A DNA stretch of 64,000 nucleotides from an archaeon (GCA_020056635.1 JAGVHI010000003.1:28638-92637); one strand, 5' to 3'. Shown: positions 25,432-54,243, counted from the first letter of the stretch. Translations and numbers: made by a program. Notes: a model not told the origin generated them from the sequence alone.

Positions 25432-25926
25432 ATGAGGGGGCAGGGAATAATATTCGATTTTGTGGTGTCGCTTTCGTTCTTCGTAGTGGGCGTGGTGATA
25501 ATGGTCGGGGCGCTTGATATGCTAGGCGAGAGGATGGAGAAGGAGAGGGATTATGCAAACGTGGCGCGGGCGGCCTACTTCGCATCCGAGAGCCTGCTCT
25601 CGCTTGGGAGCCCAGAAAACTGGAACACCAATGTACTTGCGCTAAACCAGATCCAGGTCGGGTTAGGGGCTGCGCCCGGTGAGCTGCATGGGGCAAAAAT
25701 ACGGAATTTCGCCGCCCTCAATGCAACGGATTATGACGGCCTGCGCTCGGCGCTTGGAGTCGGAAAATATGATCTTTATGTGAATATCACGCAACTGCAA
25801 GGCAATCAGAGCTATCTTGTGGGAAAGTTCTTTGACGAGTCGTATGGGGATTTTGATTATAGGGTGGAGAGGTATGCGCTTTTAGACGGCAACCTCACTA
25901 GGGTAGTGGTTGGAGTTTGGAAGTGA
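25432..25926 (+). CDS. Archaeal type-IV-pilin-like protein (class III signal peptide)
   Basis: MRGQGIIFDFVVSLSFFVVGVVIMVGAL. Confidence 0.55.
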   Translation: MRGQGIIFDFVVSLSFFVVGVVIMVGALDMLGERMEKERDYANVARAAYFASESLLSLGSPENWNTNVLALNQIQVGLGAAPGELHGAKIRNFAALNATDYDGLRSALGVGKYDLYVNITQLQGNQSYLVGKFFDESYGDFDYRVERYALLDGNLTRVVVGVWK

Positions 25927-25933
25927 TTTGCCA

Positions 25934-28900
25934 ATGAAAAAGAGCGGGTTTGTGATATCGTTCGAGGCGCTTACAGCGCTGCTCCTGGTATTCGCCACAC
26001 TGTCGCTCATGTATGCCGCGATGAGGGACGCCCCTGCCCCAAGGGAAATAGGCTCCGAGCACAACATCGAGGCGATTGCAAGCGACATCTCGGTCCTCTC
26101 CGGGCTAGTGTACGGGAAAAACCTGAGTACTGGGAGCGCGGACCAGGTGAGCTTCCTTCTCTACCGGCTCCAACCCGGGCTGTGCGCAAGAGTTTATCTT
26201 GTGGAGAATGGCACGGGAGGATATTTTGATTCTGTTTCGAGCGGGGATTGTAGGTTGCCTACTGAGGGGAGCAACCCCGCGCCGCCCATTGCGTATTGGA
26301 CGTTTGACGCAAAGCAGGTGAGGGGCGCCAATGCATCGAACTCCACCTATGCGCTTGATGCAAGCGGAGGAGGTTATGACTGCATTGTAGGAGGGCAAGC
26401 GAGCGATGTCGGGAGCAAGAGTGCGATGCCTGGCAAGCTTGAACGCGAGAGTTGCAGGCGCAAGGGGTGCTACTCCTTCGATGCGGTGGACGACCAGCTC
26501 TCATGCCAGAACTACAGCAGGCTTATGCATGTGACTGCGAGCGATTTCACAATCGGCGGGTGGATCTATCCGAATCCTACAGGCGTCGGCCCAAGCTATG
26601 TTATCCATTCCGGGGAAGGGAGCACTGAGGAGTTCGAGGTCAGGTATTATCCTGCCAGCAGCACCATATCCGCCCGGATTTATGCCCCGCGCAATGGGAC
26701 CGTGAATGCCACGTTGCACCCGCTGGGATGGCATCATTTTGCAGCAGTGGGCAGGGGCTCGAACCTGTCGCTTTATGTTGATGGGGAATACACAAACAGC
26801 ACTGGCATGACTGACAATGGCTTACCGTACATTTCGAAAATATATATGGGGGACGGGTTCAACGGGACCATTGATGAGCTTAAGATTTTCGACCGCGGGC
26901 TGACCGCGGCTCAAGTGCGCGAGGAGGCGGAATATAGGGTGTTTGGCAAGTATGGCTTTGACTATGATTTGCGTGCGCCCTTCTCACACGGCATGGCAGT
27001 GGATGAGAGCGGGAACTGGAATGATTTGAAAGTGAGGGGCAACGCGACGCAGAACATTTCTGAGATGGGCGGGCTGGCATTCAATTTCCCGGGCCCGATG
27101 GGCGGAAGCTCGCTTGAGAATACCACAATTGCGAACTTTACCCAGACAACAGTGATGATGCGGATCAAGCAGAGGTCATACGGCAATTCAACGAATTGGC
27201 CCGGGTTGGCAGCAAGAAGTGGCAGCTTCGCGTTCTATTCAAACACCACTGTAGGAGGCGGGCTTGTACTACTGGTGTGGAATGCAACAGGCGGCGTTAT
27301 ACGAATACCGTCATTGTTACCCCAGGTTCCGCTTGACGAGTGGCACCATGTCGCGTTCACGTATGCAGGTAAGAACGCAACAATCTATCTTGATGGAGTT
27401 GGAGCGAACAGCAGCGACGCGATATACCCATACAATTTAACGCTGTCTGGAACGCAAGGTCCGCTGCAGATTGGCACGACAAATTTCGGTGTGCATGATT
27501 TCAACGGGACAATGGATGATGTGAGGGTTTATTCAAGGGCGCTTGGTGCGAGTGAAATCGAGTCAGCATATAGGGGCTATGTTGAGCACCCTGCCATATA
27601 TGAGAGTAAATCGTTGTTTGGGGCAACATACGCGAAAATTGGCGGGCTCCTTGGAACGATAAACAGGACAGCCGCGTTCTATTCGTTTGACCTTAATGCG
27701 ACTGGCAACATCACAAATGACTCCTCCCCCAATGTCTTGAATGGGCTTGTAGGTGAGGGAATTGCCCAGAAGATGCCGTACCTAAACCGCTCCAATAATA
27801 GCCCAATTGGGAATGATTACCTGAGGCTGCAGAATTTGTCCGCGTTCTACGAGTTTGACGGGGTGAATGACACCATAGCGGTGCCGAGCAATAGCCTGCT
27901 GCAGAACCCTGCTGATTTGACCGTGGAGGCGTGGGTCAGGCCCAAAAACAACGTTCCAGCAAACCAGATTGTGGCATCGTACTTAAATTCTGCAGACAAT
28001 ACTGGATGGGAGCTTAGGCTTGTTGATTCTGGGGGAACACTAAATCAGGTGATAAGGAGGGGCGATGGGGGCGGAACCTCAATCCTCACTGGGAGCGAAG
28101 CAGTCTGGGTCAACAGGTGGAGCTACATCGCTGCGACATTTTCCAGGGCAGAGGGCTCAAAGCTGTATAGGAATGGGATGCTTGTTGGGGGCAATTCAAG
28201 CGATACTGGCCCATGGCCGAACCCAACATTGAGCAATTTCACAATAGGGGGAAACGCATCAGGTTGTGCAACTTGCTTCTTCAACGGGAGCATTGATGAG
28301 GTGAGGCTGTACAACAAGAGCCTGAGCGAAAAGCAGATTTATGAAAGGTACTATCTTCGCGCAAGCTATTCGTTTGATGCCAACAATTCAACCACAGGGT
28401 TCTTCGTGAACGACAGCTCGGTTTACAAGGGGCATTGCAGGCTGGTGAACGGCACTTGGAACAGCACCGGTGGCATTTTGGGCAGGTTCTATGAATTCAA
28501 CGGGAGTACGGGTTCTGGGTTGAACTGCAGCAATTCAAGCTCAAGCAGCATCGTCGCGCTGGGTAACAGGACTGTGATGATGTGGTTTAGGCTGCGGGAG
28601 CCAAGTACCGTATCAGATTATTCGTATATCCTATTTTCACGAGGCCAGATTACATGGGACACCCTTGCGATAAATTCAAGCAGGACTATATTGACGTATT
28701 CGCACTCTTCGCCAACTGGGGTAAGTGTCATAGGCGCTCCAGTAACTCCCCTCTTTAGGGAGGTTCCAAAAAACCAGTGGCTGCATGCTGCCGTATCGTA
28801 CAACAATGCCAGTAAGGAAACCCGAGTTTACTTGAACGGGGTTATGCTTGGGAAAATTGCAAATGACACAGTCACATCCAATGAAGATATCCTCTATGTT

Positions 28901-29059
28901 GGGAGGGACACAGGTGGAAGCTATATGATGAACGGCAGCATGGACGAGGTGAAGGTTTTCGGCAGGGCATTGTCAGATTCTGAAATATTCGATGAGTATA
29001 TGAGCGCTGCAAACCCCAATGAGAGGTTTGCGGTGCGAAGCGTGGTGTGGGGCAGATGA
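25934..29059 (+). CDS. Giant pilin-like adhesin with a class-III signal peptide and four LamG/concanavalin-A-like domains, rich in N-glycosylation sequons
   Basis: N-terminus MKKSGFVISFEALTALLLVF. Four repeats of the LamG_3 hallmark: DELKIFDRGLTAAQVREEAEY, DDVRVYSRALGASEIESAY, DEVRLYNKSLSEKQIYERYY, DEVKVFGRALSDSEIFDEY. More than 40 N-x-S/T sequons. Confidence 0.7.
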   Translation: MKKSGFVISFEALTALLLVFATLSLMYAAMRDAPAPREIGSEHNIEAIASDISVLSGLVYGKNLSTGSADQVSFLLYRLQPGLCARVYLVENGTGGYFDSVSSGDCRLPTEGSNPAPPIAYWTFDAKQVRGANASNSTYALDASGGGYDCIVGGQASDVGSKSAMPGKLERESCRRKGCYSFDAVDDQLSCQNYSRLMHVTASDFTIGGWIYPNPTGVGPSYVIHSGEGSTEEFEVRYYPASSTISARIYAPRNGTVNATLHPLGWHHFAAVGRGSNLSLYVDGEYTNSTGMTDNGLPYISKIYMGDGFNGTIDELKIFDRGLTAAQVREEAEYRVFGKYGFDYDLRAPFSHGMAVDESGNWNDLKVRGNATQNISEMGGLAFNFPGPMGGSSLENTTIANFTQTTVMMRIKQRSYGNSTNWPGLAARSGSFAFYSNTTVGGGLVLLVWNATGGVIRIPSLLPQVPLDEWHHVAFTYAGKNATIYLDGVGANSSDAIYPYNLTLSGTQGPLQIGTTNFGVHDFNGTMDDVRVYSRALGASEIESAYRGYVEHPAIYESKSLFGATYAKIGGLLGTINRTAAFYSFDLNATGNITNDSSPNVLNGLVGEGIAQKMPYLNRSNNSPIGNDYLRLQNLSAFYEFDGVNDTIAVPSNSLLQNPADLTVEAWVRPKNNVPANQIVASYLNSADNTGWELRLVDSGGTLNQVIRRGDGGGTSILTGSEAVWVNRWSYIAATFSRAEGSKLYRNGMLVGGNSSDTGPWPNPTLSNFTIGGNASGCATCFFNGSIDEVRLYNKSLSEKQIYERYYLRASYSFDANNSTTGFFVNDSSVYKGHCRLVNGTWNSTGGILGRFYEFNGSTGSGLNCSNSSSSSIVALGNRTVMMWFRLREPSTVSDYSYILFSRGQITWDTLAINSSRTILTYSHSSPTGVSVIGAPVTPLFREVPKNQWLHAAVSYNNASKETRVYLNGVMLGKIANDTVTSNEDILYVGRDTGGSYMMNGSMDEVKVFGRALSDSEIFDEYMSAANPNERFAVRSVVWGR

Positions 29060-30015
29060 TGGGTTCAAAAAAAGGCTACATATACACTATTTCGATCGTG
29101 CTGATAGGCACCATACTGTCGATATTTGTGTTCAACGCATACACGCAGCACTACAGTTCGCTTATTTCCCAGCGCATAGAGTCGAGCCTGCCGCGCGCGC
29201 AGCAGGAGTTTGATTTCGTCGCTGCACAGTCGCTTGACCTGGCAAAAAACAGGGTGAGGATTTCCGGCAATTCGACTTTTTACAATGTTACGGTAACAGA
29301 CGTGCTGCCGCACAGGGCTGACAATATGGACTTCATAAACTGGAGCGCATATGGCTACTATTTGAACGGCAGCTACTACGGCCAGTCGCACTCGAACCTG
29401 ACTGTTTCGAAATACTTCTCCAATTCCAATGACGGCATGAACACCACCTTTAGGCTGTCTGCCATGGGGCCTGGAGCGGCAGCCCCCTGGAACAATATAA
29501 TGGACTGGAGAAGGGGGAATGCGAACAGCTCGAATTTCACCTATACGAAAAGCCTGACCCAGAACATGAGCGTCTCTGTGCGGTGCCAGAATGCGTCAAC
29601 AATGAGCCCGGCCGTAGTTCCTGGCAGCGATTCAAGCAATCCGTTCTACATGAAATATTCAGATCCGAATAGGGCATATGCGCAGACTGCCATTGCATCT
29701 GGCGGCGCATCAGAGGATTTGGTGGTATTTTTCATCGAGTTCAACTCAAGCGCGCCCAGCATCAATTTCACATTGAGGTTCGTGAATGAAACGCCTGTGC
29801 TGGGTGTGGGCGGAGGGGCGCAGTGCGAGGTTAACGCAAGCGTAACTACGAATGGATTGAATGAGAATTACACTGTTAAATATGATTTCAATACGCTATT
29901 GAACTACACTGCGCGCGCAGGGGACGTGGCAAACGTCACAAAATCGGCAGTTATAGGCAGGTACATGCGCGACCCGGAGTATTATGCAGCCCCGATAGAT
30001 GATTCGCAGCCTTAG
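29056..30015 (+). CDS. Pilin-like secreted protein (class III signal peptide), with heavy N-glycosylation sequon load
   Basis: MMGSKKGYIYTISIVLIGTILSIFVF. The ATG overlaps the upstream TGA as ATGA (translational coupling). Many NxS/T sequons (NSTF, NVTV, NWSA, NGSY, NLTV, NMSV, NAST, NFTL, NETP, NASV, NYTV, NYTA, NVTK). Confidence 0.6.
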   Translation: MMGSKKGYIYTISIVLIGTILSIFVFNAYTQHYSSLISQRIESSLPRAQQEFDFVAAQSLDLAKNRVRISGNSTFYNVTVTDVLPHRADNMDFINWSAYGYYLNGSYYGQSHSNLTVSKYFSNSNDGMNTTFRLSAMGPGAAAPWNNIMDWRRGNANSSNFTYTKSLTQNMSVSVRCQNASTMSPAVVPGSDSSNPFYMKYSDPNRAYAQTAIASGGASEDLVVFFIEFNSSAPSINFTLRFVNETPVLGVGGGAQCEVNASVTTNGLNENYTVKYDFNTLLNYTARAGDVANVTKSAVIGRYMRDPEYYAAPIDDSQP

Positions 30016-37546: not shown

Positions 37547-38092
37547 ATGGGTGTTGGCGAGCAAATGGAGATAATCAGGATACCTTCCGAGCGGCTAGCC
37601 GTGCTCTTCGGCAAGGCAGGGGACACGCAAAAGCTATTGGAAGGCGCGTGCAAGGTGCTGCTTTCGGTTGACGAGGATGGGGCGGTGCAGATAGAGGGCG
37701 AGCCCGTGGACGAATATTTCTCAAAAGACGTGATAAGGGCGATTGGGAGGGGGTTTGAGCCCAATATTGCCCTGCTCCTGCTAAACGAGGAGTACGCCCT
37801 TAGGATTGTGAACCTTCGCGAGATGGGAAATGAGAACTGGATGCTGCGGCAGAAGGGGCGAGTAATCGGCGAGAAGGGAAGGACCAGGAAGATTATAGAG
37901 GAGATGAGCGAATCGCACATTTCAGTGTATGGGTACACCATTTCCGTGATTGCAAATCTTGGGACCATTGATATTGCGATGGAAGCAGTCTCGATGCTGC
38001 TGCAGGGGCACACGCACCCTGCAGTATATGCATATTTGGAAAAGCAGAAGCGGGAGATGAAGAAGAAGCGGGTGCTTGATTTTGTAGGATAG
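37547..38092 (+). CDS. KH-domain RNA-binding protein (archaeal Dim2/Pno1-like)
   Basis: Two KH-like modules, IPSERLAVLFGKAGDTQKLLE and RQKGRVIGEKGRTRKIIEE. Confidence 0.65.
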   Translation: MGVGEQMEIIRIPSERLAVLFGKAGDTQKLLEGACKVLLSVDEDGAVQIEGEPVDEYFSKDVIRAIGRGFEPNIALLLLNEEYALRIVNLREMGNENWMLRQKGRVIGEKGRTRKIIEEMSESHISVYGYTISVIANLGTIDIAMEAVSMLLQGHTHPAVYAYLEKQKREMKKKRVLDFVG

Positions 38093-38155
38093 CCATCTTT
38101 TACCCCGTATACAAACAAATAAATAGCCTGGAATGGATAATATGACCGAATAGCT

Positions 38156-39148
38156 ATGGCGATTATGCAGGCTGCGGGCAATACCAAAATGCACAACAGG
38201 CTAATTAGGCCTGGCATGCTTCTTATTCCAGCAGCAGTTGCGCTTGGGGTTCTAATGCGTTTTGCGCCAGGGCTTGCCTCGCCTACGCCGCAGGAAGTGT
38301 TTAGCGCATGGAAAAGCGGGCAGCATGGCACAAAAAGCGGACTTGTTTTGCCTGCAATGGAAAATGTGAATCATGCCCAATTGGCGCAGCGCGAAATTAT
38401 GAAACTAAAGCCTATGGTTGAAACACAGGGGGTTATTGCACGTGGCAGGGAAGCAAAACCGTTGCGACCCGGGCAAAGCGCGATTGCAAGGAACAGGAAT
38501 GAGGAGCCATCTCCGCCTTTGCCTTTTGACAGCCTTGTGACCAGTATGCAGGATTATTTGGTTTATTTCCAGCCGGATGTAGTGATACCCATACTCCACA
38601 ACGGAAGTTACGTATATATCCATGCGGAACGGTTTGCGGATGATGCAAATTCGGCAATCAGGTACAGCACGGTTGTGATGCAGCGGGATTCCACAAGCCC
38701 GTCTGAGCAGCTGACGCTGCAGGAGTGCATCCAGGTGCTCGGGAATGTCGGGGGCATACTTGTGATACCGAACCGGAACATGTCTTATGCTGACACGAGC
38801 TTTGCGAATGAGGTGCGAAGGGTAGGGACACTTATTTCGTGGCACGTGCCAGACAATGCAGGGGAGCCGCCGCAGGTTCCAATCAACCCGAACCTCACCC
38901 TTAGTTCGTACCCGAACCCGTTCAACAATTCAACAACTTTCAAATTCGAGCTTGCGCAGGAGGCTGCAGTGAAGCTTACTGTGCATGATTTGCTCGGGAG
39001 AACGGTTGCAAAAATCGTGGATGGCAGGATGGCGCCCGGGGAGCACGAGGTGCCGTGGGACGCACGGGAGTTCGCGACCGGAACTTACATTGCGGTATTG
39101 AATTTAGGCGGGCAGAGGGCGGTCTGGAGAATCAAGCTTGTGAAGTGA
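38156..39148 (+). CDS. Secreted protein with a Por-secretion-system (T9SS-type) C-terminal sorting domain
   Basis: N-terminal signal/TM. The C-terminal ~80 aa (LSSYPNPFNNSTTFKFELAQEAAVKLTVHDLLGRTVAKIVDGRMAPGEHEVPWDAREFATGTYIAVLNLGGQRAVWRIKLVK) matches the TIGR04183 CTD pattern. Confidence 0.55.
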   Translation: MAIMQAAGNTKMHNRLIRPGMLLIPAAVALGVLMRFAPGLASPTPQEVFSAWKSGQHGTKSGLVLPAMENVNHAQLAQREIMKLKPMVETQGVIARGREAKPLRPGQSAIARNRNEEPSPPLPFDSLVTSMQDYLVYFQPDVVIPILHNGSYVYIHAERFADDANSAIRYSTVVMQRDSTSPSEQLTLQECIQVLGNVGGILVIPNRNMSYADTSFANEVRRVGTLISWHVPDNAGEPPQVPINPNLTLSSYPNPFNNSTTFKFELAQEAAVKLTVHDLLGRTVAKIVDGRMAPGEHEVPWDAREFATGTYIAVLNLGGQRAVWRIKLVK

Positions 39149-39160
39149 GGTGGGGTTGGA

Positions 39161-41728
39161 ATGGAAAATAAGGCCTTTGCGGCAATAGCCATGATATCTT
39201 TGCTCGGAATGATTGCTGCGCAGGATGCGGGATTGCAGGCGGGGACAAGCGCGGTTGAAGGCTCATATGCAAAATGGATTGGTAATGTACGCAGTGCCGA
39301 GGCTGTACATGCGTCAGAGAATGAAGTGATGCAAGAGATAGTACGGCAGGAGGCCGCTCCTGCTGTCGGGAGCTGGGAAACGTATTTTGTCGTTGCGATT
39401 GCAAAGGGAAACATAGGCGTATGGATAGAGGGGGGCGGCGATGGAAAGGTTGCGCCTGTTTCGAATCTGGTTGAGCGGCCGGAGCTCACCGAAGAAGAGG
39501 AGCAGGAGCTTTTCAGCCTCATAATAGAGCATGGCGGCGAGCCTGCAGGCAAATTCGAAGCGCTTCCTGCAGTCTATTATGCAAGGTTCAAACGCAGCAG
39601 GGATGCGCAGACGCTTTCGCAAGAGCCCATGGTGCATGGAGTGTACCCGATCCATTCCTATCGGCCGCTCCTTTACCAGAGCAGGGCTGCGGTGGGCGCG
39701 GATTTGGCAAATGCCCAGTTCAATTCAGGGGGAGGGGTGAAAGTCGCAGTAATTGACACCGGAGTTGATTACTCAAACCCGAACTTTCGGGACCCCATGT
39801 ACATAGGAGGGGGAGGCAGGGCGGATGAAGGGGCATACTTCGGCGGTGAGCCTTATGGGGACGTTTGGCAGGATTTCCTTTTCATGAACCCGTGGGAGAG
39901 GGTGCGGGACATTCCGTTTAGGATTCCGGAGGGGTATTCGGAGCCGCTTTTTGCAAACATGATTTTCGTGGACTATTTTTCCTACCCGAATGCAAGCACG
40001 CAGGGAGGGGCGCAAAACATTACAGGCCCTGATTTTGACCTTTACCTGTACCGGCCCAGTGAATATGAGCATAACCTCGACAGCCTTGAGCTGCTTGCGT
40101 CTTCGGAGCGCGGGGGCTGGAGGAATTTCACTGAGGAGATGTATGTGCCGCAAATCGACCCCGGGCAGTACATTCTAAGGATAGAGCGAAAAAGCGATAC
40201 TGCTGGGTATTATAGGAGGTTTGATACTGGCCTAAATTCGATTGTGAACGAGCCAGCCCGCATTTCGGTTGCAATAGGAAGCAAGCCCAGGTTCATCATC
40301 GGGAGTGTGTATGCGAATACCAGCGAAAGGCCGAATGGGGCGATAGAGTCGAATGCTGGCTATCGGCTCGGGAGGTTCTCGTACAGAGGGGTTGAATACA
40401 ACTTCACGCTTAGCGACACAGTGGCAGGGGACGGGCAGTTTTACTATGGTTATGATGCGCTCTCGGCAGATATGAATGGCGATGGGAATTACTCGGATTT
40501 CCAGTTTCGGGTGAACCGGAGCAATTATGTGAATGGGCTGGGGGAGAGTTTCAGGTCTGACAACCTTAGGGGGTTTGAAACTGCGGATGCATACCGCCCC
40601 GGGGGCGTTAACCTGATTGCAAACAGCAGGCTTTTCCCTGCGGAGAATTTCACGCTTGGGATAATACTCTCGTCCGAAATCGACCAGACTTACCAGGGCG
40701 GGAACACTCCGGCAGATTCTGTCCTTTTCAATGGGAACAAGGTGCTTTTCTCCCAAACGCTGCTTGATTTCTCTTACCGCTATCCGCCAACGTTTACGCT
40801 AAAGGAGCCAGCTGACATAAGCGGGCACGGGACGCACGTTGCAGGGATACTTGCATCAGAAGGGAACCTTATGGGAATAGCACCAAAAGTGCGGGTTTAT
40901 AATGCAAAGGTATTCGGCGGGTACGCGCAGGGGCAGGGAAACGACATAGCGCTGCCTGTTTGCTTCCGGCATGTGCAAAACCAGCCAGACAGCAAGATGT
41001 ACTGCCATGGGGTGCCGCTTGCGTTTGAGGATAATGTGATTGCGGCAATGGAGGGCGCGAGGGCGAGCGGCGCAAGGGTGGTGAGCCTGAGCATAGGGAA
41101 CCGGACTGCGAATTGCAGCGATAGCCTGCTTGTAGAGCTCATAGGCAACTTTTCCAACATCTACAATATCATAGTAGTTGCTGCTGCAGGGAACGATGGG
41201 AGCTTGGCAGGCACTATACACACTCCCGGATGCGCGCAGGATGCGATTACAGTAGGGGCAACAGGCAGGGACGGGCAGGTTGCAGGCTATAGCTCAAGGG
41301 GGCCGACAGACTATGGGGCAGTGAAGCCCGATTTGGTCGCGCCAGGGGGGGACCGCGGCCTGATGCAGCCTTATGTGATTGATGGGGTCACTTACGGAAT
41401 CATGAACCCGAACGGGATTGCGGCAACCAAAAGCAGGGAAGGGATGATTTCGCTTGCGTATTTCGCGAACTATAGCAATAGCATGAACCAGCGCATGACA
41501 GGAACAAGCATGTCTGTGCCGCATGTGAGCGGCACGGTTGCGATGATGCTGCACGAGAACCCAAGCCTTACGCCTGCGCAGATAAAGCAGATGCTCATGT
41601 CTGCTGCGACCAATTTGAGCGCCGACCCAAACGCACAGGGGGCAGGGATGCTAAACGCGTATGAGGCGGTGAGGGCGGCGCATGAGATGGGAAGGACTGG
41701 CAATCCAGTTTACGAGGAGCACAGCTGA
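39161..41728 (+). CDS. Secreted subtilisin-like serine protease (peptidase S8) with a large insertion
   Basis: Signal peptide. Catalytic triad motifs VAVIDTGVD (Asp), HGTHVAGILAS (His), GTSMSVPHVSG (Ser). Confidence 0.85.
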   Translation: MENKAFAAIAMISLLGMIAAQDAGLQAGTSAVEGSYAKWIGNVRSAEAVHASENEVMQEIVRQEAAPAVGSWETYFVVAIAKGNIGVWIEGGGDGKVAPVSNLVERPELTEEEEQELFSLIIEHGGEPAGKFEALPAVYYARFKRSRDAQTLSQEPMVHGVYPIHSYRPLLYQSRAAVGADLANAQFNSGGGVKVAVIDTGVDYSNPNFRDPMYIGGGGRADEGAYFGGEPYGDVWQDFLFMNPWERVRDIPFRIPEGYSEPLFANMIFVDYFSYPNASTQGGAQNITGPDFDLYLYRPSEYEHNLDSLELLASSERGGWRNFTEEMYVPQIDPGQYILRIERKSDTAGYYRRFDTGLNSIVNEPARISVAIGSKPRFIIGSVYANTSERPNGAIESNAGYRLGRFSYRGVEYNFTLSDTVAGDGQFYYGYDALSADMNGDGNYSDFQFRVNRSNYVNGLGESFRSDNLRGFETADAYRPGGVNLIANSRLFPAENFTLGIILSSEIDQTYQGGNTPADSVLFNGNKVLFSQTLLDFSYRYPPTFTLKEPADISGHGTHVAGILASEGNLMGIAPKVRVYNAKVFGGYAQGQGNDIALPVCFRHVQNQPDSKMYCHGVPLAFEDNVIAAMEGARASGARVVSLSIGNRTANCSDSLLVELIGNFSNIYNIIVVAAAGNDGSLAGTIHTPGCAQDAITVGATGRDGQVAGYSSRGPTDYGAVKPDLVAPGGDRGLMQPYVIDGVTYGIMNPNGIAATKSREGMISLAYFANYSNSMNQRMTGTSMSVPHVSGTVAMMLHENPSLTPAQIKQMLMSAATNLSADPNAQGAGMLNAYEAVRAAHEMGRTGNPVYEEHS

Positions 41729-41785
41729 AAGCCAAGTGCGGGCACTTCGCAACTGTTAATAAGTTTCGGCAGCGCAAGCAAGAAC

Positions 41786-42028
41786 ATGGAAACGGAAACG
41801 CTTGGGATAATTGGGATGGCGTTCGTCGGGCTTGCAATCGCGTTTGAGACTTACCAGAATTTCAGGGAAAAAAAGAAGCCGGATTTGAGGTTTGCGGCAT
41901 TCTACTTCTTTGGAAGCGCATTCCTTTCCTATTACGCGTATGGGATGGGCGAGTGGATTTTTTTTGCGCTAAACGCGTTCACCGCGCTGCTTGCGCTTGT
42001 GAATGTTTACCAGCATGTGAGGAATTAG
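41786..42028 (+). CDS. Small two-TM membrane protein (hypothetical)
   Basis: 80 aa with two hydrophobic helices. Confidence 0.3.
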   Translation: METETLGIIGMAFVGLAIAFETYQNFREKKKPDLRFAAFYFFGSAFLSYYAYGMGEWIFFALNAFTALLALVNVYQHVRN

Positions 42029-42300
42029 GCAAAAATCCGTTGGCGTGGGGGCGCGCACCATGGCTTGCGAGCGGCAAGGCTTGGGAATGAGCATCAGCCT
42101 GCGAGTGGCACCGCGCCCGTGAAGGCAGGCTCTTGCTTTATATTTTTTCTGCGGATAATTGGTTCGACCAGTCACATGAGGTGGCAAACCCCTCTGAGGG
42201 GCATGCCAGCCGTGTGAGAATTGGCGGGCGTAGCCTCACCAGCAACTGAAATTGCTGGCATGGCCACCTCGTGTGTGAACAGCTTGCAGGGTTGTTTCTT

Positions 42301-43938
42301 ATGGCTAGCGAAACCGACAAAATATTCTCCGAGTTCAAGGAGCACTCAGTTGCGGAGTTTTTCAAGAAGAACAGGCAGATGCTTGGCTTCTCTGGAAAAG
42401 TGCGCTCGCTCACCACCATTGTGCACGAGTATGTGACTAACTCCCTTGATGCGTGCGAGGAGGCAGGGATGCTGCCAGACATAACTGTCGAGATAAAGGA
42501 GCTGGACAAGGAGAAGTATTGGGTGCGGTGCAGCGACAACGGGCCTGGAATACCGCAGAAGCACCTGGGGAAAGCCCTGGGCATGATGCTTGCAGGAACC
42601 AAGTTCCACAGGTACGTGCAGCAGAGGGGGCAGCAGGGGATTGGCGCATCCGGAAACACGATGTTTTCGCAGGTGACTACAGGAAAGCCGGTGAAATTCG
42701 AATCGTATTATGACAAGAAAAAAGTGGCAGGCGAGCTTGCAGTTGATTTCAAGCAGAACCGGCCAGTGATAACGAACGAAACGGTTGAGGAAACGGACGG
42801 GAGCAGGCACGGGTTGGTAGTGGAAGGCGAGTTTGCAGAAGTGAAGTATGACAGGAGCTCGTTCTCGGTGTTTGAATACATAAAGAGGACCGCGCTTGTG
42901 AACCCGCACGCGATGATTGCCCTTGTGGAGCCGACCGGGGAGAGGCTGACGTTCCCGCGCTCAATCGAAACTATCCCACCGCGGCCTAGGCAGATTAGGC
43001 CGCACCCGCTTGGGATTGGCACGAACGATTTGATGGAGTTTGCGCGCGCTGAGCGGGAGAGCAGGAAAACAAGCAGCTTCCTGCAGGCAACTTTTTCGCG
43101 GATGTCCGCTGCGAAAACGGACGAGCTTGCACAAATGTGCCCTGAGGTGGATTTTGAGAAGAGCCCGAAGAACCTCACATGGGATGATTGCGAGAAAATC
43201 ACGAAAGCGATACATTCAGATCAGGTGAAGTGGATTGCGCCAGAAACTGATGCGATTGTGCCAATAGGCCAGCCGCAGATTGAGAAATCTCTCCAGAGCA
43301 TACTTGCGCCCCAGTTCATGGCTGTGACTGAGCGCAAGCCAAAAATATACCGCGGAGGGGTGCCGTTCGTGGTGGAGGCTGCGCTTGCCTGGGGCGGAAA
43401 TGCGGGGAAGAAAGCAGTGTCGGGGTATAACTCGGATATAATGAGGTTTGCGAACAGGGCTCCGCTGCTTTTTGATGCGGGCGGGTGCGCGATTACTGAG
43501 GCGGTAAAGAGCGTTGAATGGAAAAGGTATGGGATAAAGGATTTTGAGAATGAGCAGATTACCGTGCTTGTGAACATGTCATCAGTGCATGTCCCTTATA
43601 CAGGGGCCGGGAAGCAGGCGATTGCGACAGAAGATGAGATTATGGATGAGGTCAAGAACGCGGTTATGGAGGCTGCGAGGGATTTGCAGCGGTATTTGCA
43701 CGGAGTGACCCGGGACAGGGTGCGGGTAGAGAGGAAAAAAGCGATTATGAGGTATGTGACGCAGCTTGCCGCGGATTTGGCAGAGCTGTCTGGCGGCAAG
43801 ATAAAAGCAGAGGAGCTGGAAAAGAAATTGCTGCACCTGATTGAGAACAAGTATTCGAATGCGATTGAGGAAGATGATTCAGGGGATGGGAATATAGAGG
43901 AGGAAATCTCTTCGCAGGAAGAGGAAGTGAACGAATAA
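42301..43938 (+). CDS. top6B: DNA topoisomerase VI subunit B
   Basis: GHKL/Bergerat ATPase N-terminus (EFFKKNRQMLGFSG...TIVHEYVTNSLDA), transducer domain, acidic C-terminal tail. Confidence 0.9.
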   Translation: MASETDKIFSEFKEHSVAEFFKKNRQMLGFSGKVRSLTTIVHEYVTNSLDACEEAGMLPDITVEIKELDKEKYWVRCSDNGPGIPQKHLGKALGMMLAGTKFHRYVQQRGQQGIGASGNTMFSQVTTGKPVKFESYYDKKKVAGELAVDFKQNRPVITNETVEETDGSRHGLVVEGEFAEVKYDRSSFSVFEYIKRTALVNPHAMIALVEPTGERLTFPRSIETIPPRPRQIRPHPLGIGTNDLMEFARAERESRKTSSFLQATFSRMSAAKTDELAQMCPEVDFEKSPKNLTWDDCEKITKAIHSDQVKWIAPETDAIVPIGQPQIEKSLQSILAPQFMAVTERKPKIYRGGVPFVVEAALAWGGNAGKKAVSGYNSDIMRFANRAPLLFDAGGCAITEAVKSVEWKRYGIKDFENEQITVLVNMSSVHVPYTGAGKQAIATEDEIMDEVKNAVMEAARDLQRYLHGVTRDRVRVERKKAIMRYVTQLAADLAELSGGKIKAEELEKKLLHLIENKYSNAIEEDDSGDGNIEEEISSQEEEVNE

Positions 43939-43974
43939 TAATGGCTGGCGGAGAAGGAATGGCGGGCGATAGCG

Positions 43975-45108
43975 ATGGCTGAGGGAAAAAGGGGAAAAGT
44001 TGGTTCAATGGCTGGTGAAGAAAAGGTAGTCAAAAAGCTTGAGGATTTCGGGCTGAGCATGATAAGCGAGGTCCAAAAAGAGATTTCCCCCACTTTCAAG
44101 ACAACTGCCAGGACAAAGAGCAATGTGTTCTTTGACGAGGGGCTAGGCTACATCAGGCTGGGGGACAAGATTGAGGAGCGCACTTTCATCAATGTGGGGC
44201 AGGCGCGAAAGTTCATGCAAACCATTGCGATTGCGAACAAGTGCAAGAAATTCCTCAAAGAGAGGTCGCACACAAGCATAAGGGGCCTTTATTACCAGCT
44301 CAAATTCTCCTTAGGGGATACATTGGATGAGGACATGTTCGCCGAGCAGTCTGAGAGCAACCCATTGGTGGAGGATTTGGAAGTTGCGCTTAATGTGAAG
44401 AGGGAGGACTTGAATTTGAATACGGATAGGAAGGGAGTGGTTGCAGGCGGGCTTGTGCTAAATGACAAGTTCGGCGGGGATGAGACCACGATTGACTGCA
44501 GTAAGCAGGGCAGGTCAGGCTGGATGATTCCCTCGGATGTTGATAACGGGATGGATTTTGTGAACGTTGATGCGGATTACGTGCTTGTAGTGGAAAAGGA
44601 TGCGATGTGGCAGAGGCTGAACGAGGACAAGTTCTGGAAAAAGGAGAATTGCATACTTATTACTCCAAAGGGGCAGTCGTCTAGAGGCTGCAGGCGGCTG
44701 ATTCGGAAACTTGCGGACAGGAAATTGCCTGTTTATTGCTTCACAGACTGCGATGCATGGGGCTGGTACATTTACTGGGCGATTAAAACAGGGAGCATAA
44801 ACCTTGCATACCTTGCGAATGATATTGCGATTCCTGAGGCGAAATTCGTGGGAGTGACAATGAGGGACATAAAGGACTATGAGTTCCTTGGGAAATTGAC
44901 AATCAATGCAAAGGATGTGGACATTAAGCGCGCTGAGGAGATGCTCGCGTATGACTGGATTTCGCGCAATAAGGACTGGGTGGAGGAATTGAAAACGGTG
45001 CTTAAGACAAAGAAGAAGATTGAGCAGGATGCGCTGCAGGGGCCGAGGCTGTCGTTCGTTGGGGACTACCTGCGCGAGAAGATTGCAAAAAAGAAGTTCC
45101 TTTCCTAA
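43975..45108 (+). CDS. top6A: DNA topoisomerase VI subunit A (Spo11-like)
   Basis: Winged-helix 5Y-CAP plus Toprim domain (DADYVLVVEKDAMWQRL, ITPKGQSSRGCRRL). Confidence 0.9.
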   Translation: MAEGKRGKVGSMAGEEKVVKKLEDFGLSMISEVQKEISPTFKTTARTKSNVFFDEGLGYIRLGDKIEERTFINVGQARKFMQTIAIANKCKKFLKERSHTSIRGLYYQLKFSLGDTLDEDMFAEQSESNPLVEDLEVALNVKREDLNLNTDRKGVVAGGLVLNDKFGGDETTIDCSKQGRSGWMIPSDVDNGMDFVNVDADYVLVVEKDAMWQRLNEDKFWKKENCILITPKGQSSRGCRRLIRKLADRKLPVYCFTDCDAWGWYIYWAIKTGSINLAYLANDIAIPEAKFVGVTMRDIKDYEFLGKLTINAKDVDIKRAEEMLAYDWISRNKDWVEELKTVLKTKKKIEQDALQGPRLSFVGDYLREKIAKKKFLS

Positions 45109-49423: not shown

Positions 49424-49482
49424 ACCGGACCGCATGGCAATTCTTTAAATAGCGCAAGCCAGAATTAGCCTTGGTGATTTTG

Positions 49483-51231
49483 ATGAGGCCAGTCTTGCTT
49501 GCTGTTTTTGCGCTGTTGACGCTTTTCGGCCCGGTTTTTGCACAAGCAGGCGCGGAATATGGCGCCATTGTGGGTGGAATTGCCGGGATGAATACAGTTG
49601 CTGCTGTTGGGGCCATAACCGGCTCCGCTTCAGGCGGCGCAATAGAGGTTGCCGTGCCTGCGGAAGGGGAGCAGGCTGTTGAGGTTGGATTTGCAGAGGA
49701 AATCAAGCCTGCTTTGGTAAATTGCGTAGTGAGCTCCGAATTCTCAAGGGGGATTAGCTACTATGTGCGCATGCTCTCCGAAACCAAGGACAAGGGGGAG
49801 CAGGCGAAAATAATGGAGAAGATTTCGCAGCTCAAGCAAAAGGCGCTGTCCGAGAAGGCGGAATGCACAACGAGCGCAGTTTCGCCTGTTGCAATTGGCG
49901 TAACACCTGTGCAGAAGCCTGTTGCTAAGCCGCTGCCTTCAACAGCACCCACGGCCGAGCCTGTTGCATGCACAACAGAATATTCTCCTGTGTGCGGAGC
50001 GGACGGGAGAACCTACTCGAACAAGTGTTTTGCATCGGTTGCTGGAATCGAAGTTGCTTACTCGGGGAAGTGCGAGGAGGAGAAGCCGCCCGAAATTCCA
50101 GGGGATGATTACTCGGACGTTCAGCCCACCGGAGGGGTGTACGGCTATTACGCGGCTTGGTATGGGAAGGTGAACCAGGTAAGCAAGGATGGCAAGAGCT
50201 GGATGAGCGACCCGGACGGGGTAACCGGGGCGGATGCACATCCGCTTGCGTACTGCCAGAAATGGTTCCCGGATGCAAAAGGGGTGGATGATATCGGGAG
50301 GCATTTTGTTCCGGGGTTCAAGAACAGGGGGAATTTGGGCAGTTTTGACGCTGAAACAGTAGTGTATGAGTGCACCGAGAGCGAGGGGGTGAATATAGTC
50401 ACCCCGCTTGTGGTGTGGGGCAACGGCTTTCCGACATGGAGAAGCTTGGACGGCCAGACCAACCCATGCGACCTTGAGAAGCAGATGAAGGTGCAGGGCA
50501 AGCCTTGGTACGGGCCTTCTTGCGAGGAGGCAGGGGCGGGAAGCGCAGGGCCTTCGTGGGTGGCTGTCGCAGAGCCTGTTGAAGTTGTGGCAAAGCCTGC
50601 TCTGCCGAGCAAAGCATATGAGGTGTCACAATACTACCGGGAAAAAATGACTGATATCGTGGAATCGGAGGATGACGCACAGGCGCAGGTTGCAGAATTG
50701 AAAACGCTGCAAAAGGAGATAGATGCGATGATTGAAAAGCTGCTCTCAAGGCAGGGGAGCATTGATGCTGGGGACATGGGGCAGGTGGTCGATGCGATTG
50801 AGGTGACCCCAGGCTCGGTGAAAGCGGATAATGTGGAAGTTTTGGGGCCAAAGGTGATTTCCGCAACGCTCGGGGATGCAAAGCCTGTTGAGGTGGAAAC
50901 CAGCGCGAATGCGGTCACTGTGACGGACGCTGGCGTTTCCGCTGGGGCAAGCGCAGTCACGCTCACACGCGACAGCGTGAAAATCGGGGGCAGGAGCCTC
51001 AAGGTCACCCCGTCAGAGGCTGCAAAGAAAGTGATTGCAACCGTGACTAAGATGAGGATTGAGAAGCAGGATGAGAGACCAGTGTACAAAATAGATGCGG
51101 AAAAGAAAGTGAGGGTGCTTGGGATATTCCCGACCAAAATGGAGCAGAAAGTCACAGTTGACGGGGAGAGCGGGCAGGTCGTTTCCACAGAGAAACCATG
51201 GTGGGGCGATCTTGCGACAGACGATGGATAG
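49483..51231 (+). CDS. Secreted protein containing a Kazal-type protease-inhibitor-like domain
   Basis: Signal peptide, then CTTEYSPVCGADGRTYSNKCFASVAGIEVAYSGKC, which matches the Kazal Cys pattern C-x6-C-x7-Y-x3-C-x?-C. Confidence 0.55.
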   Translation: MRPVLLAVFALLTLFGPVFAQAGAEYGAIVGGIAGMNTVAAVGAITGSASGGAIEVAVPAEGEQAVEVGFAEEIKPALVNCVVSSEFSRGISYYVRMLSETKDKGEQAKIMEKISQLKQKALSEKAECTTSAVSPVAIGVTPVQKPVAKPLPSTAPTAEPVACTTEYSPVCGADGRTYSNKCFASVAGIEVAYSGKCEEEKPPEIPGDDYSDVQPTGGVYGYYAAWYGKVNQVSKDGKSWMSDPDGVTGADAHPLAYCQKWFPDAKGVDDIGRHFVPGFKNRGNLGSFDAETVVYECTESEGVNIVTPLVVWGNGFPTWRSLDGQTNPCDLEKQMKVQGKPWYGPSCEEAGAGSAGPSWVAVAEPVEVVAKPALPSKAYEVSQYYREKMTDIVESEDDAQAQVAELKTLQKEIDAMIEKLLSRQGSIDAGDMGQVVDAIEVTPGSVKADNVEVLGPKVISATLGDAKPVEVETSANAVTVTDAGVSAGASAVTLTRDSVKIGGRSLKVTPSEAAKKVIATVTKMRIEKQDERPVYKIDAEKKVRVLGIFPTKMEQKVTVDGESGQVVSTEKPWWGDLATDDG

Positions 51232-51287
51232 GCTGCCCCTGTTTCCTTTTTATTCTTTCAAGGAGTAGCATTGGTGCTGCATTTTAT

Positions 51288-51359
51288 GGGCTAGTGGCGC
51301 AACGGTAGCGCGCCTGCATGGCATGCAGGAGGCTGGGGGCTCGAATCCCCCCTAGTCCA
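51288..51359 (+). tRNA. tRNA-Ala (anticodon GGC)
   Basis: Acceptor gggctag/ctagtcc with the G3:U70 Ala identity pair. Anticodon stem cctgc/gcagg, loop atggcat. T-arm ggggg-ctcgaat-ccccc. Confidence 0.9.
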
Positions 51360-51441
51360 TTTCAATCACAACAAGAACGATAAAGGATGAGGCGCTTTTG
51401 CGAAAAAGAAGTTATTTATACTGAACAGACAATAGTTTGTT

Positions 51442-53277
51442 ATGTCATCCTTGGCTCTGGCAGAAGAAGGGAAGAGGTATACGCCCTTGCCTTTGACTGA
51501 CGTTAGTTGGACATTGGAGAAGATAGACGAGCGGCTTGGATACCAGTGCCCATTCCGTCTGGCTGAGAGAATAATGAGTTCTGAAAAACCGGGGGAAAAA
51601 TTCGCCTGGATAAAATCGTCCCTTGATACCTTGCGCGGCGTTTTGGGCAAGGAGAACACAGATGCTGCGTTCTACGCCTTTGGCAATCAGTTAATTGCAA
51701 ATTTTTTTGATAGGGAGCCGATGCAGGTCATTGATAGCTTCGCGCGCATAGCGCAAAGTACCGACCAGGTTGCAGCGAACTATGCGCTTCGCGCCCTTGT
51801 GCGGCAGCCGATTGCAGAAATTTATGTCAACGAATCCCCAAGGTGTGTAGAGGATATGTTCGGGCGCGTAGTGCAGGAGGCAGGCGGTAACGCGCGATTT
51901 GTTTTTGAGCTGCTTGGATTGACGACCACTGCAGGCATGTCCGCCTCTGATCTAGATAGGACAGTGGACGCGCTTTTGAGTCTGACCAAATATCCAGAGG
52001 AAGTGACACGGAATATCGAAGCCGTGTTTGTTGTAAGCAGGGAAAACGCGGAATGCCTTGCGAAAAATCCGGCAGGGGTTGCCACCCTGTTTGACAGGCT
52101 GGTTGAAGATGCAAAAAATAGGGAAGATTGGGTAGTGCGCGCAAAAAGCATTGTATATATTTTTCGATATCCTAGAGTAATGACCGTTGCCATTCAAAAA
52201 CCAGAAGACTTTGTCCAAGCAGTAGGTTCCTGCCCTAGCGAAGATCTTTTTCTAGTTGGAAGACTGGCGGGAGGGGGGATTCTCGACCGTGCCATAATTG
52301 CAAGATTCGCAACAATCGCAAACCTCACACTTCCAAATGCCCGAGATGCTCTTGACTCTTCATTATCCGTTTTTTTTGGAAATCAGCTGCTTGCCCATGA
52401 TTGCTTTGAGAGATTCACTGAAACCCTTCTGATGATTGCAACTGAGCTTGATGGAGAGGCGATAAATAAAACACTTTTTTCGCTTGCCTCCAGATTGATG
52501 GACGCTGAGAACCATTCGTTCTTTGATGATTTCGAGCGCGTGGTCATTTCAGAAGAGATTGGAATGCGCAGGTTCACAGAAAAATATGGTGTCCGGCCGA
52601 TGAGGATAATGGGCTTTTTTGATGGAAAAGCAGGAATACATGACCCAGATTATTATGATGCCACTATGGAACAGAATATGAAGAGTGGTATAATGGAGAT
52701 TGCAGAAAGGCAGGGGCTGAACCCAAATTTTCTTGCAGCAGCTCTCTTCCAAGAGGGTTTTATAAATAAAATGGATCAGACAAAGTTCCAATTTTACATA
52801 AAAGATGTTGATTCATTCAGCGAAGTAGAGATGGATTCTTTTTATGTGGAGATAGACGAACTTAAGAGGGGCGGCTATATTCCACATGGGTTTGGCGATT
52901 CAGGAGAGTTCGAAATCGGATCTGAAGTGACAAATGAAAATGGTTTTAGAAGCCGGCGGGTTAAGTTTAAGACCCAGCACGACGCATTTGAGGCGTTTGG
53001 AGCGATGCTTGCTGCGCGCAGGGACAGGTTCCTCTTGCAGGCAAAGAAAATGGGCTATCAGCCGGATAAGCTGTCACCGGAGGTTGTGTGGGCTGGCACT
53101 TATCTTTATTACAACGCAGCCAACCCACAGAAAAAAGTTGAGGATATTGGAGTTGGCAACCTTCTTGATAAATATACACCAACGAAACAGAGCATAGCTG
53201 ATTTCCGCTACAATTACATGCGGGTAGTGAGCACAGCCGATTATTTACGGGCTGGCGGCACGTTCGGGAATCCATGA
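51442..53277 (+). CDS. Large hypothetical protein (611 aa) in a relatively AT-richer segment downstream of tRNA-Ala
   Basis: Long uninterrupted ORF. Helical-repeat-like N-terminal half. No motif recognised. Confidence 0.5.
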   Translation: MSSLALAEEGKRYTPLPLTDVSWTLEKIDERLGYQCPFRLAERIMSSEKPGEKFAWIKSSLDTLRGVLGKENTDAAFYAFGNQLIANFFDREPMQVIDSFARIAQSTDQVAANYALRALVRQPIAEIYVNESPRCVEDMFGRVVQEAGGNARFVFELLGLTTTAGMSASDLDRTVDALLSLTKYPEEVTRNIEAVFVVSRENAECLAKNPAGVATLFDRLVEDAKNREDWVVRAKSIVYIFRYPRVMTVAIQKPEDFVQAVGSCPSEDLFLVGRLAGGGILDRAIIARFATIANLTLPNARDALDSSLSVFFGNQLLAHDCFERFTETLLMIATELDGEAINKTLFSLASRLMDAENHSFFDDFERVVISEEIGMRRFTEKYGVRPMRIMGFFDGKAGIHDPDYYDATMEQNMKSGIMEIAERQGLNPNFLAAALFQEGFINKMDQTKFQFYIKDVDSFSEVEMDSFYVEIDELKRGGYIPHGFGDSGEFEIGSEVTNENGFRSRRVKFKTQHDAFEAFGAMLAARRDRFLLQAKKMGYQPDKLSPEVVWAGTYLYYNAANPQKKVEDIGVGNLLDKYTPTKQSIADFRYNYMRVVSTADYLRAGGTFGNP

Positions 53278-53391
53278 TGACATTGCCTTAATTTAGCACA
53301 CATATAATTCCGTTGTGTAAAAATCGACAAATTAAAATCGGAAAGAAAAGAGAAAGGAAAAAAGAAGAAAAAGAAAAAAGAAAGAAAATTC

Positions 53392-53415
53392 ATGTTCGGG
53401 TTGGAAACCCGAACA
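53392..53415 (-). terminator. Perfect hairpin (gttcgggtt-ggaa-acccgaac) followed on the minus strand by a pyrimidine/T-rich tract, downstream of the 53455-54138 gene
   Basis: 9-bp stem. The adjacent 53320-53390 region is an A/G-rich low-complexity tract on plus, hence T/C-rich on minus. Confidence 0.35.
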
Positions 53416-53454
53416 GCTCGCAACGGAGTTGCGGGAAAAAAAAGAAAGTTCAAC

Positions 53455-54138
53455 TTAGAGAATGTTGAACTTATCCTTGTTCTTGTCCGCGACTTTTGCA
53501 ACTGTGTCTTTCAGCCCGAGGCCGATTGCGATTGCCCCGCCCAGGCCGAGCATGAGGCCAAGCGCAGCAAGCACGATTGCAAACGACTGCTCAAGCAGCA
53601 CCGTGCTCGCCCTTGGGAGCAGCATCGGCAGCGCTATCACAAGCGCGTTGTATGCGATGAAGACCTCAACCACTATTGCAATGAGGTTCACAAAGGGCAC
53701 GCCCTTTGCAAGCTTCATGCGGTCTGTGATGTAGTCTCCGATCATCAGCCCTGCAACCAGCACCACAGCACCTGATGTGAGCGAGGGCAGGTAGTTGGTT
53801 GCCATGCTTGCAAGTGACATCAGGAATGGGAATTTCATCACCCCTGCGCCGAACCCGAAGAACAGCACCATAACCCAGAGCCACATCAGCGTAGTGATTA
53901 CCTGAGTGAATGTGAAGCCCAGAAGCGAGTCGTGCAGGTGGTGCTTCTTTAGCTCAGCTTCAAGACTTAGGTGCTTGAGGAATTTGCGTATTCCGCTGTT
54001 TATCAGCCAGGCGACCACGTGCCCGACTATGAGCGCAATCACCACTATTGCAAACGCGGCAACCCCTTCAAGTATGTTTCCGAGGAAGCCCGTGGCAAAC
54101 GTCGTTAGTTCATTCGTAAACGCCGCCATTTCAACCAT
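53455..54138 (-). CDS. Membrane protein with conserved TM-helix repeats (MscS N-terminal-like, PF05552-type)
   Basis: Repeated ...L.LG.GGAIAIGLGLKD... style segments across 5-6 TM helices. Confidence 0.45.
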   Translation of the reverse strand: MVEMAAFTNELTTFATGFLGNILEGVAAFAIVVIALIVGHVVAWLINSGIRKFLKHLSLEAELKKHHLHDSLLGFTFTQVITTLMWLWVMVLFFGFGAGVMKFPFLMSLASMATNYLPSLTSGAVVLVAGLMIGDYITDRMKLAKGVPFVNLIAIVVEVFIAYNALVIALPMLLPRASTVLLEQSFAIVLAALGLMLGLGGAIAIGLGLKDTVAKVADKNKDKFNIL

Positions 54139-54243
54139 TAAACCACCCTGAGTATCCTCCTCGGGACTTGTTTATAAACGTTTCGAGGTGGGAATGGAAA
54201 AACAAGGGGAAAAAATTAGGGAAGAGGGAAATGCTAGGATGGG

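Follow-up and report, generated by a model that had tools for sequence, protein, structure and literature searches.

A T9SS type A-like C-terminal domain on a predicted secreted protein of a Micrarchaeota archaeon, encoded beside a subtilase

Introduction

We describe a gene in a 64,000-nucleotide (nt) stretch of archaeal DNA (GCA_020056635.1, JAGVHI010000003.1:28638-92637; hereafter the window, which holds about 60 genes and from whose first letter all positions are counted) that encodes a 330-amino acid (aa) protein with an unusual tail. [quoted passage not shown]

In bacteria, the T9SS carries folded cargo from the periplasm over the outer membrane with PorV as the shuttle, and PorU cuts off the CTD and links the cargo to anionic lipopolysaccharide; within the CTD, motifs D and E, terminal lysines included, contact PorM and PorV (PMC10202324). 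According to this review, the distribution of CTDs tracks that of the T9SS core genes, and CTD proteins are restricted to Bacteroidota (PMC10202324).

Results

Sequence assignment of the C-terminal domain

The assignment is carried by profile searches. TIGR04183, the model of the T9SS type A sorting domain, matched residues 252-326 of the 330-aa protein with 29.9 bits (E=4.1e-7), above its curated cutoff of 23, and the match is far beyond chance, since an E-value of 4e-7 was obtained against the ~60 genes of the window. PF18962 matched residues 252-322 with 24.6 bits (E=3.2e-5) and just missed its gathering score of 27; nevertheless, the precomputed Pfam column of the database gives PF18962.8 for the identical protein (P0001). 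The domain runs to the final residue (330/330; ...WRIKLVK*), starts with S-Y-P-N-P-F, contains G-T-Y as its G-x-Y and ends in R-I-K-L-V-K (K-x-x-K), such that the conserved motif set of the family (YPNP-type motif B, G-x-Y motif D and lysine-containing motif E) is present. The domain keeps each of the eight columns that are invariant in an alignment of 93 CTD sequences (P-N-P-F, T, G, G-x-Y), and it departs from several columns that are at least 90% conserved elsewhere (P10N, I14F, S60T). The nearest bacterial CTDs, on proteins that PGAP names as T9SS type A sorting domain proteins, share 46-50% identity with the archaeal one.

An earlier note on this DNA had read the C-terminal ~80 residues as a T9SS CTD and had placed an 855-aa S8 protease with a signal peptide directly after the 330-aa protein. 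The significant match to TIGR04183 bears out the first of these claims, and both open reading frames (ORFs) are exactly as described there. A hidden Markov model (HMM) built from seven CTDs and run against all six frames of the window matched only the 330-aa ORF, with neither a second CTD in the window nor a CTD on the protease. We also looked in both proteins for an archaeal C-terminal sorting signal of the PGF-CTERM/archaeosortase type, and found neither a C-terminal transmembrane helix nor a Pfam or NCBIfam match.

Predicted fold of the domain

An AlphaFold model of the CTD, made with a deep CTD alignment, is an all-beta sandwich (predicted local distance difference test, pLDDT, 89.8; predicted template modeling score, pTM, 0.77), to which DSSP assigned six long strands plus an N-terminal PNPF segment. 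This agrees with the Ig-like beta-sandwich of about seven strands that characterizes the CTD family, a fold that is not specific to that family. In a Foldseek comparison with the PDB, matches were returned to Bacteroides DUF3244, CD47, FlgD, alpha-2-macroglobulin MG domains, a Haloferax surface layer (S-layer) protein domain and PorZ, and among them were the CTDs of RemA and NucA bound in T9SS complexes (8gl6_D and 8glk_D; TM 0.50-0.58). We had considered the fold as a means of telling a T9SS CTD from a generic Ig domain, and rejected it in this role after two models and two PDB searches had yielded non-specific beta-sandwich matches only. The fold fits a T9SS CTD without discriminating; the family assignment rests on sequence.

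The same results bear on whether the domain derives from a T9SS CTD at all, or is instead a FlgD-like or other generic Ig-like beta-sandwich that came to resemble one by convergence or through very deep ancestry. PF18962 falls under its gathering score, and the FlgD_ig model (PF13860) scores nearly the same (22.1 bits, under its cutoff of 27); moreover, the best PDB sequence match of the CTD is FlgD (E=0.1), and Foldseek puts DUF3244, CD47 and FlgD level with or above the T9SS CTDs. However, the cutoff of TIGR04183 was passed, the closest identities are to proteins named for the T9SS type A domain, the diagnostic S-Y-P-N-P-F start is paired with a K-x-x-K end exactly at the C-terminus, and a profile seeded with the archaeal CTD retrieves 6979 PF18962 proteins. 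The Ig-like domain of FlgD is a related beta-sandwich, with 26-28% identity in structural alignments to the archaeal CTD and the sub-threshold HMM match just mentioned, but its score lies under those of the CTD models, FlgD lacks the diagnostic terminal motifs, and the archaeal domain is not accompanied by flagellar genes. To our knowledge, archaea have neither FlgD nor the hook. We consider an origin outside the T9SS family quite improbable.

Archaeal host and native composition

By the sequences of its genes, the host is a DPANN archaeon of the phylum Micrarchaeota. We used the topoisomerase VI (Topo VI) B protein of the window to scan one genome per GTDB species, and all 80 of the 80 best loci (together 1.3 Mb) belonged to Micrarchaeota (Micrarchaeia, Bilamarchaeaceae, Fermentimicrarchaeum, 'ainarchaeum') or to unclassified archaeal metagenome-assembled genomes (MAGs), the best match being MAG DeMMO2_7 with 78% identity. 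The archaeal-type genes of the window include those for PolD DP1/DP2, ABCE1, Pelota, DUF530, UPF0147, an ADP-dependent kinase, LysX and HTH_10. The archaeal context that the earlier note had described stands on both sides of the gene pair; we found a KH-domain gene upstream, Topo VI B and A downstream, and PolD, ABCE1 and Pelota nearby.

The region of the gene pair is indistinguishable in composition from its surroundings. GC content is flat across it, the tetranucleotide distance of the lineage-specific interval (Table 1) to the whole window corresponds to z=0.41, and the codon-usage correlations with other genes (r=0.92 for the CTD protein and 0.94 for the protease) are among the highest of 34 genes.

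These measurements speak to an assembly or binning artefact, in which a bacterial fragment with a T9SS cargo gene and a protease gene would have ended up inside an archaeal contig. In favor of it, homologs of the gene pair are missing from all related archaeal loci, a single assembly of the contig is on record, and the exact junction found no match in JGI metagenome contigs. Such an artefact, however, needs two chimeric joins exactly inside the intergenic gap between phylum-wide syntenic genes, as well as a tetranucleotide profile like that of the window and a codon use that fits the host better than that of most host genes; furthermore, neither gene has a close bacterial homolog, and relatives carry other insertions at the same junction. 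The tetranucleotide profile, the codon usage and the conserved synteny on both sides led us to rule out a chimera or a bacterial contaminant, which the earlier note had named as the finding that would overturn its reading, and an artefact of this kind seems to us highly improbable. Recent horizontal transfer of the whole cassette was ruled out as well, given the host-like composition and the lack of a close homolog of either gene anywhere.

A lineage-specific insertion at a conserved junction

The gene pair is a lineage-specific insertion at an otherwise conserved site. The KH gene is upstream of the Topo VI B gene, on the same strand, in 69 of the 80 Micrarchaeota loci, with a median gap of 67 bp and a gap of at most 700 bp in 61 loci. 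In the window the gap measures 4178 bp, the second largest seen, and tblastn found no homologs of the CTD protein or the protease in the 80 loci. The large gaps of a few relatives hold unrelated cargo: a 520-aa Cys-rich protein with a 41%-identical homolog elsewhere in the window (locus L001, 7040-10000), and a major facilitator superfamily transporter with an unknown protein (L006, 7113-10000).

The KH gene ends 64 nt upstream of the CTD-protein gene, which is in turn separated from the S8 gene by a spacer of 12 nt. Because this short spacer carries a Shine-Dalgarno (SD)-like GGTGGGG and a TATA-like element precedes the first ATG (Table 1), we infer that the two genes probably form one transcript or a translationally coupled unit. 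The third ORF of the interval, which would encode an 80-aa membrane protein, probably does not belong with them, because its homolog in another Micrarchaeota genome sits at a different position (L052, 14670-14990; 38% identity, E=1.6e-9); since the pair itself has no homologs in the loci, the lineage-specific cargo consists of the two secreted-protein genes.

Table 1. Features at the junction between the KH and Topo VI B genes and within the two encoded proteins
Feature	Position	Strand	Basis or remark
KH-domain protein (arCOG04150), upstream flank, universal archaeal	37547..38092	+	TIGR03665 174.6 bits vs cutoff 114.2
Lineage-specific interval, 4.2 kb	38093..42270	+	Between KH (arCOG04150) and Topo VI B; holds CTD-protein gene, S8 gene and 80-aa membrane ORF
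Putative archaeal promoter, A/T-rich TATA-like AAATAAATA	38116..38125	+	31-40 nt 5' of ATG; read from sequence, tentative
CTD-protein gene, 330 aa (signal peptide, orphan region, T9SS-type-A-like CTD)	38156..39148	+	ORF; identical protein P0001 on a 121-kb contig (NCBI, JGI)
Predicted Sec signal peptide, residues 1-41	38156..38278	+	Basic n-region KMHNRLIR, hydrophobic core, G-L-A/S at predicted cleavage site (between A and S)
Orphan 'cargo' region, residues 42-248	38279..38899	+	No homologs, no confident structure
CTD, residues 249-330, homologous to bacterial T9SS type A CTD	38900..39145	+	Ig-like beta-sandwich (predicted); ends KLVK
SD-like GGTGGGG	39149..39155	+	In 12-nt spacer, just before protease start; read from sequence
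S8 subtilase gene, 855 aa, predicted secreted	39161..41728	+	PF00082
Insertion of ~355 aa between catalytic Asp and His, residues 200-555	39758..40825	+	No detectable homologs
80-aa ORF, three hydrophobic segments, own A/T-rich element upstream	41786..42028	+	ORF; no Pfam/NCBIfam match
Topo VI subunits B and A, downstream flank	42271..45108	+	TIGR01052 595.7 bits; Pfam Topo-VIb_trans and TOP6A Toprim

The KH-Topo VI B junction appears to be a hotspot for lineage-specific genes, since a few lineages (those of the window, L001, L006, L020, L057 and L060) carry insertions there that measure 0.7-9 kb and are unrelated to one another. The homolog in the window of the L001 protein is a 530-aa cysteine-rich protein (4732-6324, minus strand) with repeated C-x-x-C-type motifs and no family assignment; in L001, which represents the closest relative, the 41%-identical gene (7071-8633) fills the gap.

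Bacterial relatives and origin of the domain

The seven-CTD profile returned 6979 significant proteins, all with PF18962. Among the best 120 of these, a list skewed to consensus-like CTDs, organism names stand on 11 only, and all 11 are bacterial (eight Ignavibacteria, Ignavibacteriae or Ignavibacteriales, one KSB1 and two with the label Rhizobacter). Three CTD matches (P0005, P0006 and L085) lie on contigs that likewise look bacterial, with further CTD proteins adjoining, and a protein-based metagenome scan returned no more than one CTD locus, a bacterial one. Unlike the restriction stated in the review, the match list shows the family to be common in phyla of the Fibrobacterota-Chlorobiota-Bacteroidota (FCB) group other than Bacteroidota. 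In Micrarchaeota, the seven-CTD HMM found no CTD in the 1.3 Mb of loci from 80 species, which sample one housekeeping region and leave CTD proteins possible elsewhere in these genomes.

We observed that two of the bacterial contigs with the closest CTDs carry tandem arrays of CTD-protein genes (L083, 2884-12995, and L082, 345-3632; Reg_prop propellers and a NosD/beta-helix protein). Such arrays are the normal multi-copy pattern, which is missing from the archaeal window.

By several measures of its sequence the archaeal CTD has diverged and lies at the edge of the family. On average it shares 38% identity with the other CTDs, compared to 56% among those (a consensus-biased set), its nearest neighbor is 50% identical, compared to a median of 71%, and its TIGR04183 score of 29.9 bits lies under those of six bacterial relatives (32-41). 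Thus, we think it most likely, from these comparisons, that the CTD was acquired long ago from an FCB-group bacterium and then diverged while its composition was fully ameliorated; since the composition is fully host-like, the transfer would not have been recent. It may have involved either the domain alone or a whole gene whose front part has diverged beyond recognition. The suggestion of horizontal acquisition in the earlier note therefore gains indirect support for the CTD, from its bacterial named relatives, the lack of a CTD in the Micrarchaeota loci and the insertion site, and none for the rest of the protein, which has no homolog at all.

An acquired CTD could also be a decaying relic of horizontal gene transfer, persisting as a neutral tail on a Sec-secreted orphan or on a poorly expressed gene. 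This would fit its place at the edge of the family with a score under those of its bacterial relatives, the missed Pfam gathering score, the substitutions at several columns conserved to at least 90%, and the finding of a sole copy. Yet the ORF is intact, with a codon usage (r=0.92) adapted to the degree seen in housekeeping genes, the invariant residues and terminal lysines are kept, and the predicted fold still has a pLDDT of ~90; a neutral tail of 80 aa is expected to erode or to be truncated in the time that full compositional amelioration takes. We regard decay as unlikely.

T9SS context and proposed role

Judged by its context, the 330-aa protein is most likely not a functional T9SS substrate, given the wrong host, no machinery within the 64 kb and a single copy. 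The host is not a diderm FCB bacterium, the number of CTDs in the window is one, which departs from the multi-copy pattern of T9SS cargo, and none of the ~60 window proteins, which cover only 64 kb of the genome, is a T9SS component, be it SprA/Sov, PorV, PorU, PorK/L/M/N or another part. We know of no T9SS apparatus in any archaeon, and the rest of this genome would be expected to lack one too. Because a single-membrane archaeon has no outer-membrane translocon, no PorV shuttle, no PorU sortase and not the compartment where such a signal works, the CTD is almost certainly no secretion signal here.

We propose that Sec would export the 330-aa protein through its N-terminal signal peptide, and that the CTD homolog would serve as a compact, stable Ig-like terminal module of a secreted or surface-associated protein, possibly binding glycans, a partner cell or the S-layer of the cell itself. 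Alongside the secreted and probably co-expressed subtilisin, the protein might then act in extracellular proteolysis or as a cell-surface-interaction module. Judged by the fold, the role of a generic beta-sandwich surface anchor, which the earlier note had offered, is plausible.

Several points weigh against this proposal. Foldseek of the clean CTD model against the PDB gave no match at E<=0.001, and the fold search cannot separate a T9SS CTD from other Ig-like domains. The skew and sparse naming of the best 120 CTD matches, the sampling of one housekeeping region by the 80 loci and the 64-kb reach of the search for T9SS components all count on this side as well. Moreover, expression, export, co-transcription and any binding function are predictions from sequence. 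Finally, the motif-E lysines and all invariant residues are retained, which a purely structural role does not explain.

This retention could indicate that the surface by which a T9SS recognizes CTDs (motifs B, D and E and the terminal lysines) is in use, either in mimicry toward the PorV/T9SS of an Ignavibacteria-like partner or as a tag for an archaeal envelope system that recognizes CTD-type tails. Mimicry, if true, implies a cross-domain association between a DPANN archaeon and a bacterium. We hold such continued use of the surface to be very improbable.

One could also envisage recognition by a T9SS in trans, with an episymbiotic archaeon displaying the CTD so as to dock onto, or be handled by, the PorV/T9SS apparatus on the surface of a bacterial partner, for instance an Ignavibacteria-like cell. 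The CTD keeps motifs B, D and E with the terminal lysines, to which contacts with PorV and PorM are ascribed (PMC10202324). The nearest CTDs come from Ignavibacteria-type bacteria. DPANN archaea are dependent on physical contact with their hosts, but the Micrarchaeota hosts known to us are archaea (Thermoplasmatales). In addition, the T9SS recognizes CTDs from the periplasmic side and not from the cell exterior, and one diverged copy is weak support for such a display. Recognition in trans strikes us as very improbable, and we continue with the proposal of an Ig-like surface module outside any T9SS.

The body of the 330-aa protein

At residues ~15-41 the 330-aa protein has its sole Kyte-Doolittle window above 1.6, and there we read the signal peptide motif by eye; the signal peptides of both proteins were judged by inspection instead of with a dedicated predictor. 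Translation from M4 or M12, the alternative starts, would retain the signal peptide.

Between signal peptide and CTD lies the orphan cargo region. An exhaustive phmmer search with residues 40-250 against 1.84 billion representative proteins returned only the protein itself, no Pfam or NCBIfam family matched the region, and AlphaFold modeled it with a pLDDT below 50. These attempts to name a cargo domain, together with comparisons to the neighboring protease and to all loci, yielded nothing.

The neighboring S8 protease

The 855-aa subtilase appears from its sequence to be catalytically competent, with an intact triad. PF00082 matched residues 190-829 (E=1e-48), a long span for a model of 288 positions, and the catalytic residues stand in canonical motifs (D199 in DTG, H556 in HGTH, S783 in GTSM, with oxyanion N678 in AAGND). 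Its hydrophobic segment is N-terminal only (residues ~5-25), and it has neither a C-terminal anchor nor a CTD. The best homologs apart from the protease itself share 30-38% identity with it over 24-39% of its length, in the catalytic core only, and the closest PDB matches are 9ues, labelled only 'Subtilisin-like serine protease', followed by archaeal Tk-SP (3afg). With subtilases of the Tk-SP/Tk-subtilisin type (3afg, 2z2x) the window protease shares the S8 core, the Asp-His-Ser triad and a secreted precursor, but it differs from them by the ~355-aa orphan insertion and by an identity that is confined to the core. Residues 200-555, which form this insertion, gave only self-matches in blastp and phmmer searches of the window and the loci, and no Pfam domain.

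The position of the insertion between Asp and His is itself unusual, and by eye a part of it resembles a PPC-type beta-sandwich (D-x-D-L-Y-L-Y ... G-Q-Y-I-L-R-I). About 8 kb from the secreted subtilisin, we also noted a 586-aa protein (49471-51231) with an N-terminal signal-like segment and a match to Kazal_1 (35.3 bits vs a cutoff of 21); a serine protease inhibitor domain of the Kazal type seems out of the ordinary for an archaeon.

Discussion

The closest known system is the T9SS type A CTD (TIGR04183/PF18962), especially the Ignavibacteria/KSB1 subtype, with which the archaeal tail shares the sequence family and its motifs, the extreme C-terminal position, the Sec signal peptide on the same protein, a length of ~80 aa and the Ig-like beta-sandwich. 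The differences lie in the setting and in the degree of divergence: bacterial cargo proteins occur in tens to hundreds of copies per genome of a diderm FCB host, whereas here there is one copy in a Micrarchaeota genome, with a sub-Pfam score, a divergent position in the family, an orphan cargo part and no T9SS genes in the window.

A published table from 2018 (PMC6461988) lists, for a Thermoprofundales archaeal MAG, a peptidase that is predicted to be extracellular and is annotated with a Por C-terminal sorting domain. Both cases are archaeal, with a Por-type annotation and a protease context, but Thermoprofundales belong to another phylum, their CTD is on the peptidase itself, which is of the C25 (gingipain) family, and we could compare this table entry by its description only. 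Because of this entry, an archaeal Por-type tail is less unprecedented than the earlier note implied. Apart from this incidental entry, our literature search found no paper on CTDs in DPANN or analyzing CTDs in archaea, and none that treats DPANN and the T9SS together.

For FlaF, an archaeal protein with a beta-sandwich, binding to the S-layer is described (PMC4425475), and it may offer a functional analogy as a small beta-sandwich that attaches an extracellular structure to the archaeal envelope. The analogy would go no further, since FlaF belongs to the archaellum and is anchored in the membrane, and no sequence relationship is expected.

The locus provides a well-controlled counter-example to the restriction of CTDs to Bacteroidota (PMC10202324). 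For annotation, it means that a T9SS does not follow from the product name 'T9SS type A sorting domain-containing protein', and for domain evolution, that a secretion signal may be reusable as a free-standing Ig-like module. Surface and secreted proteins of DPANN archaea are likely mediators of host contact, and acquisition of bacterial genes is known in these lineages. What is new here is a T9SS-type tail outside a T9SS in a DPANN archaeon, with a mapped insertion site and a cargo found nowhere else. As one gene in one genome, it counts as a curiosity on record from which a systematic survey could start, and not as a new mechanism or system.

Other features of the window

With z=3.3, positions 24584-30015 deviate more in tetranucleotide profile than any other part of the window; here, a cluster of genes for small proteins with pilin-like hydrophobic N-termini lies beside one for a protein of 1049 aa that has four LamG (Laminin_G_3) domains. 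Directly 5' of this cluster (23060-24487) is a gene for a secreted 475-aa protein of the DUF4139/MuiA family. A region of low GC content (51287-54200; 0.465-0.47 vs ~0.52) starts right after tRNA-Ala(GGC) and contains a 611-aa ORF with a GC content at third codon positions of 0.47 and no Pfam or NCBIfam match; this may be an integrated element. Finally, an NrdR-like repressor with a Zn-ribbon and an ATP-cone (16789-17265, minus strand) places a regulator typical of bacteria in a Micrarchaeota genome.

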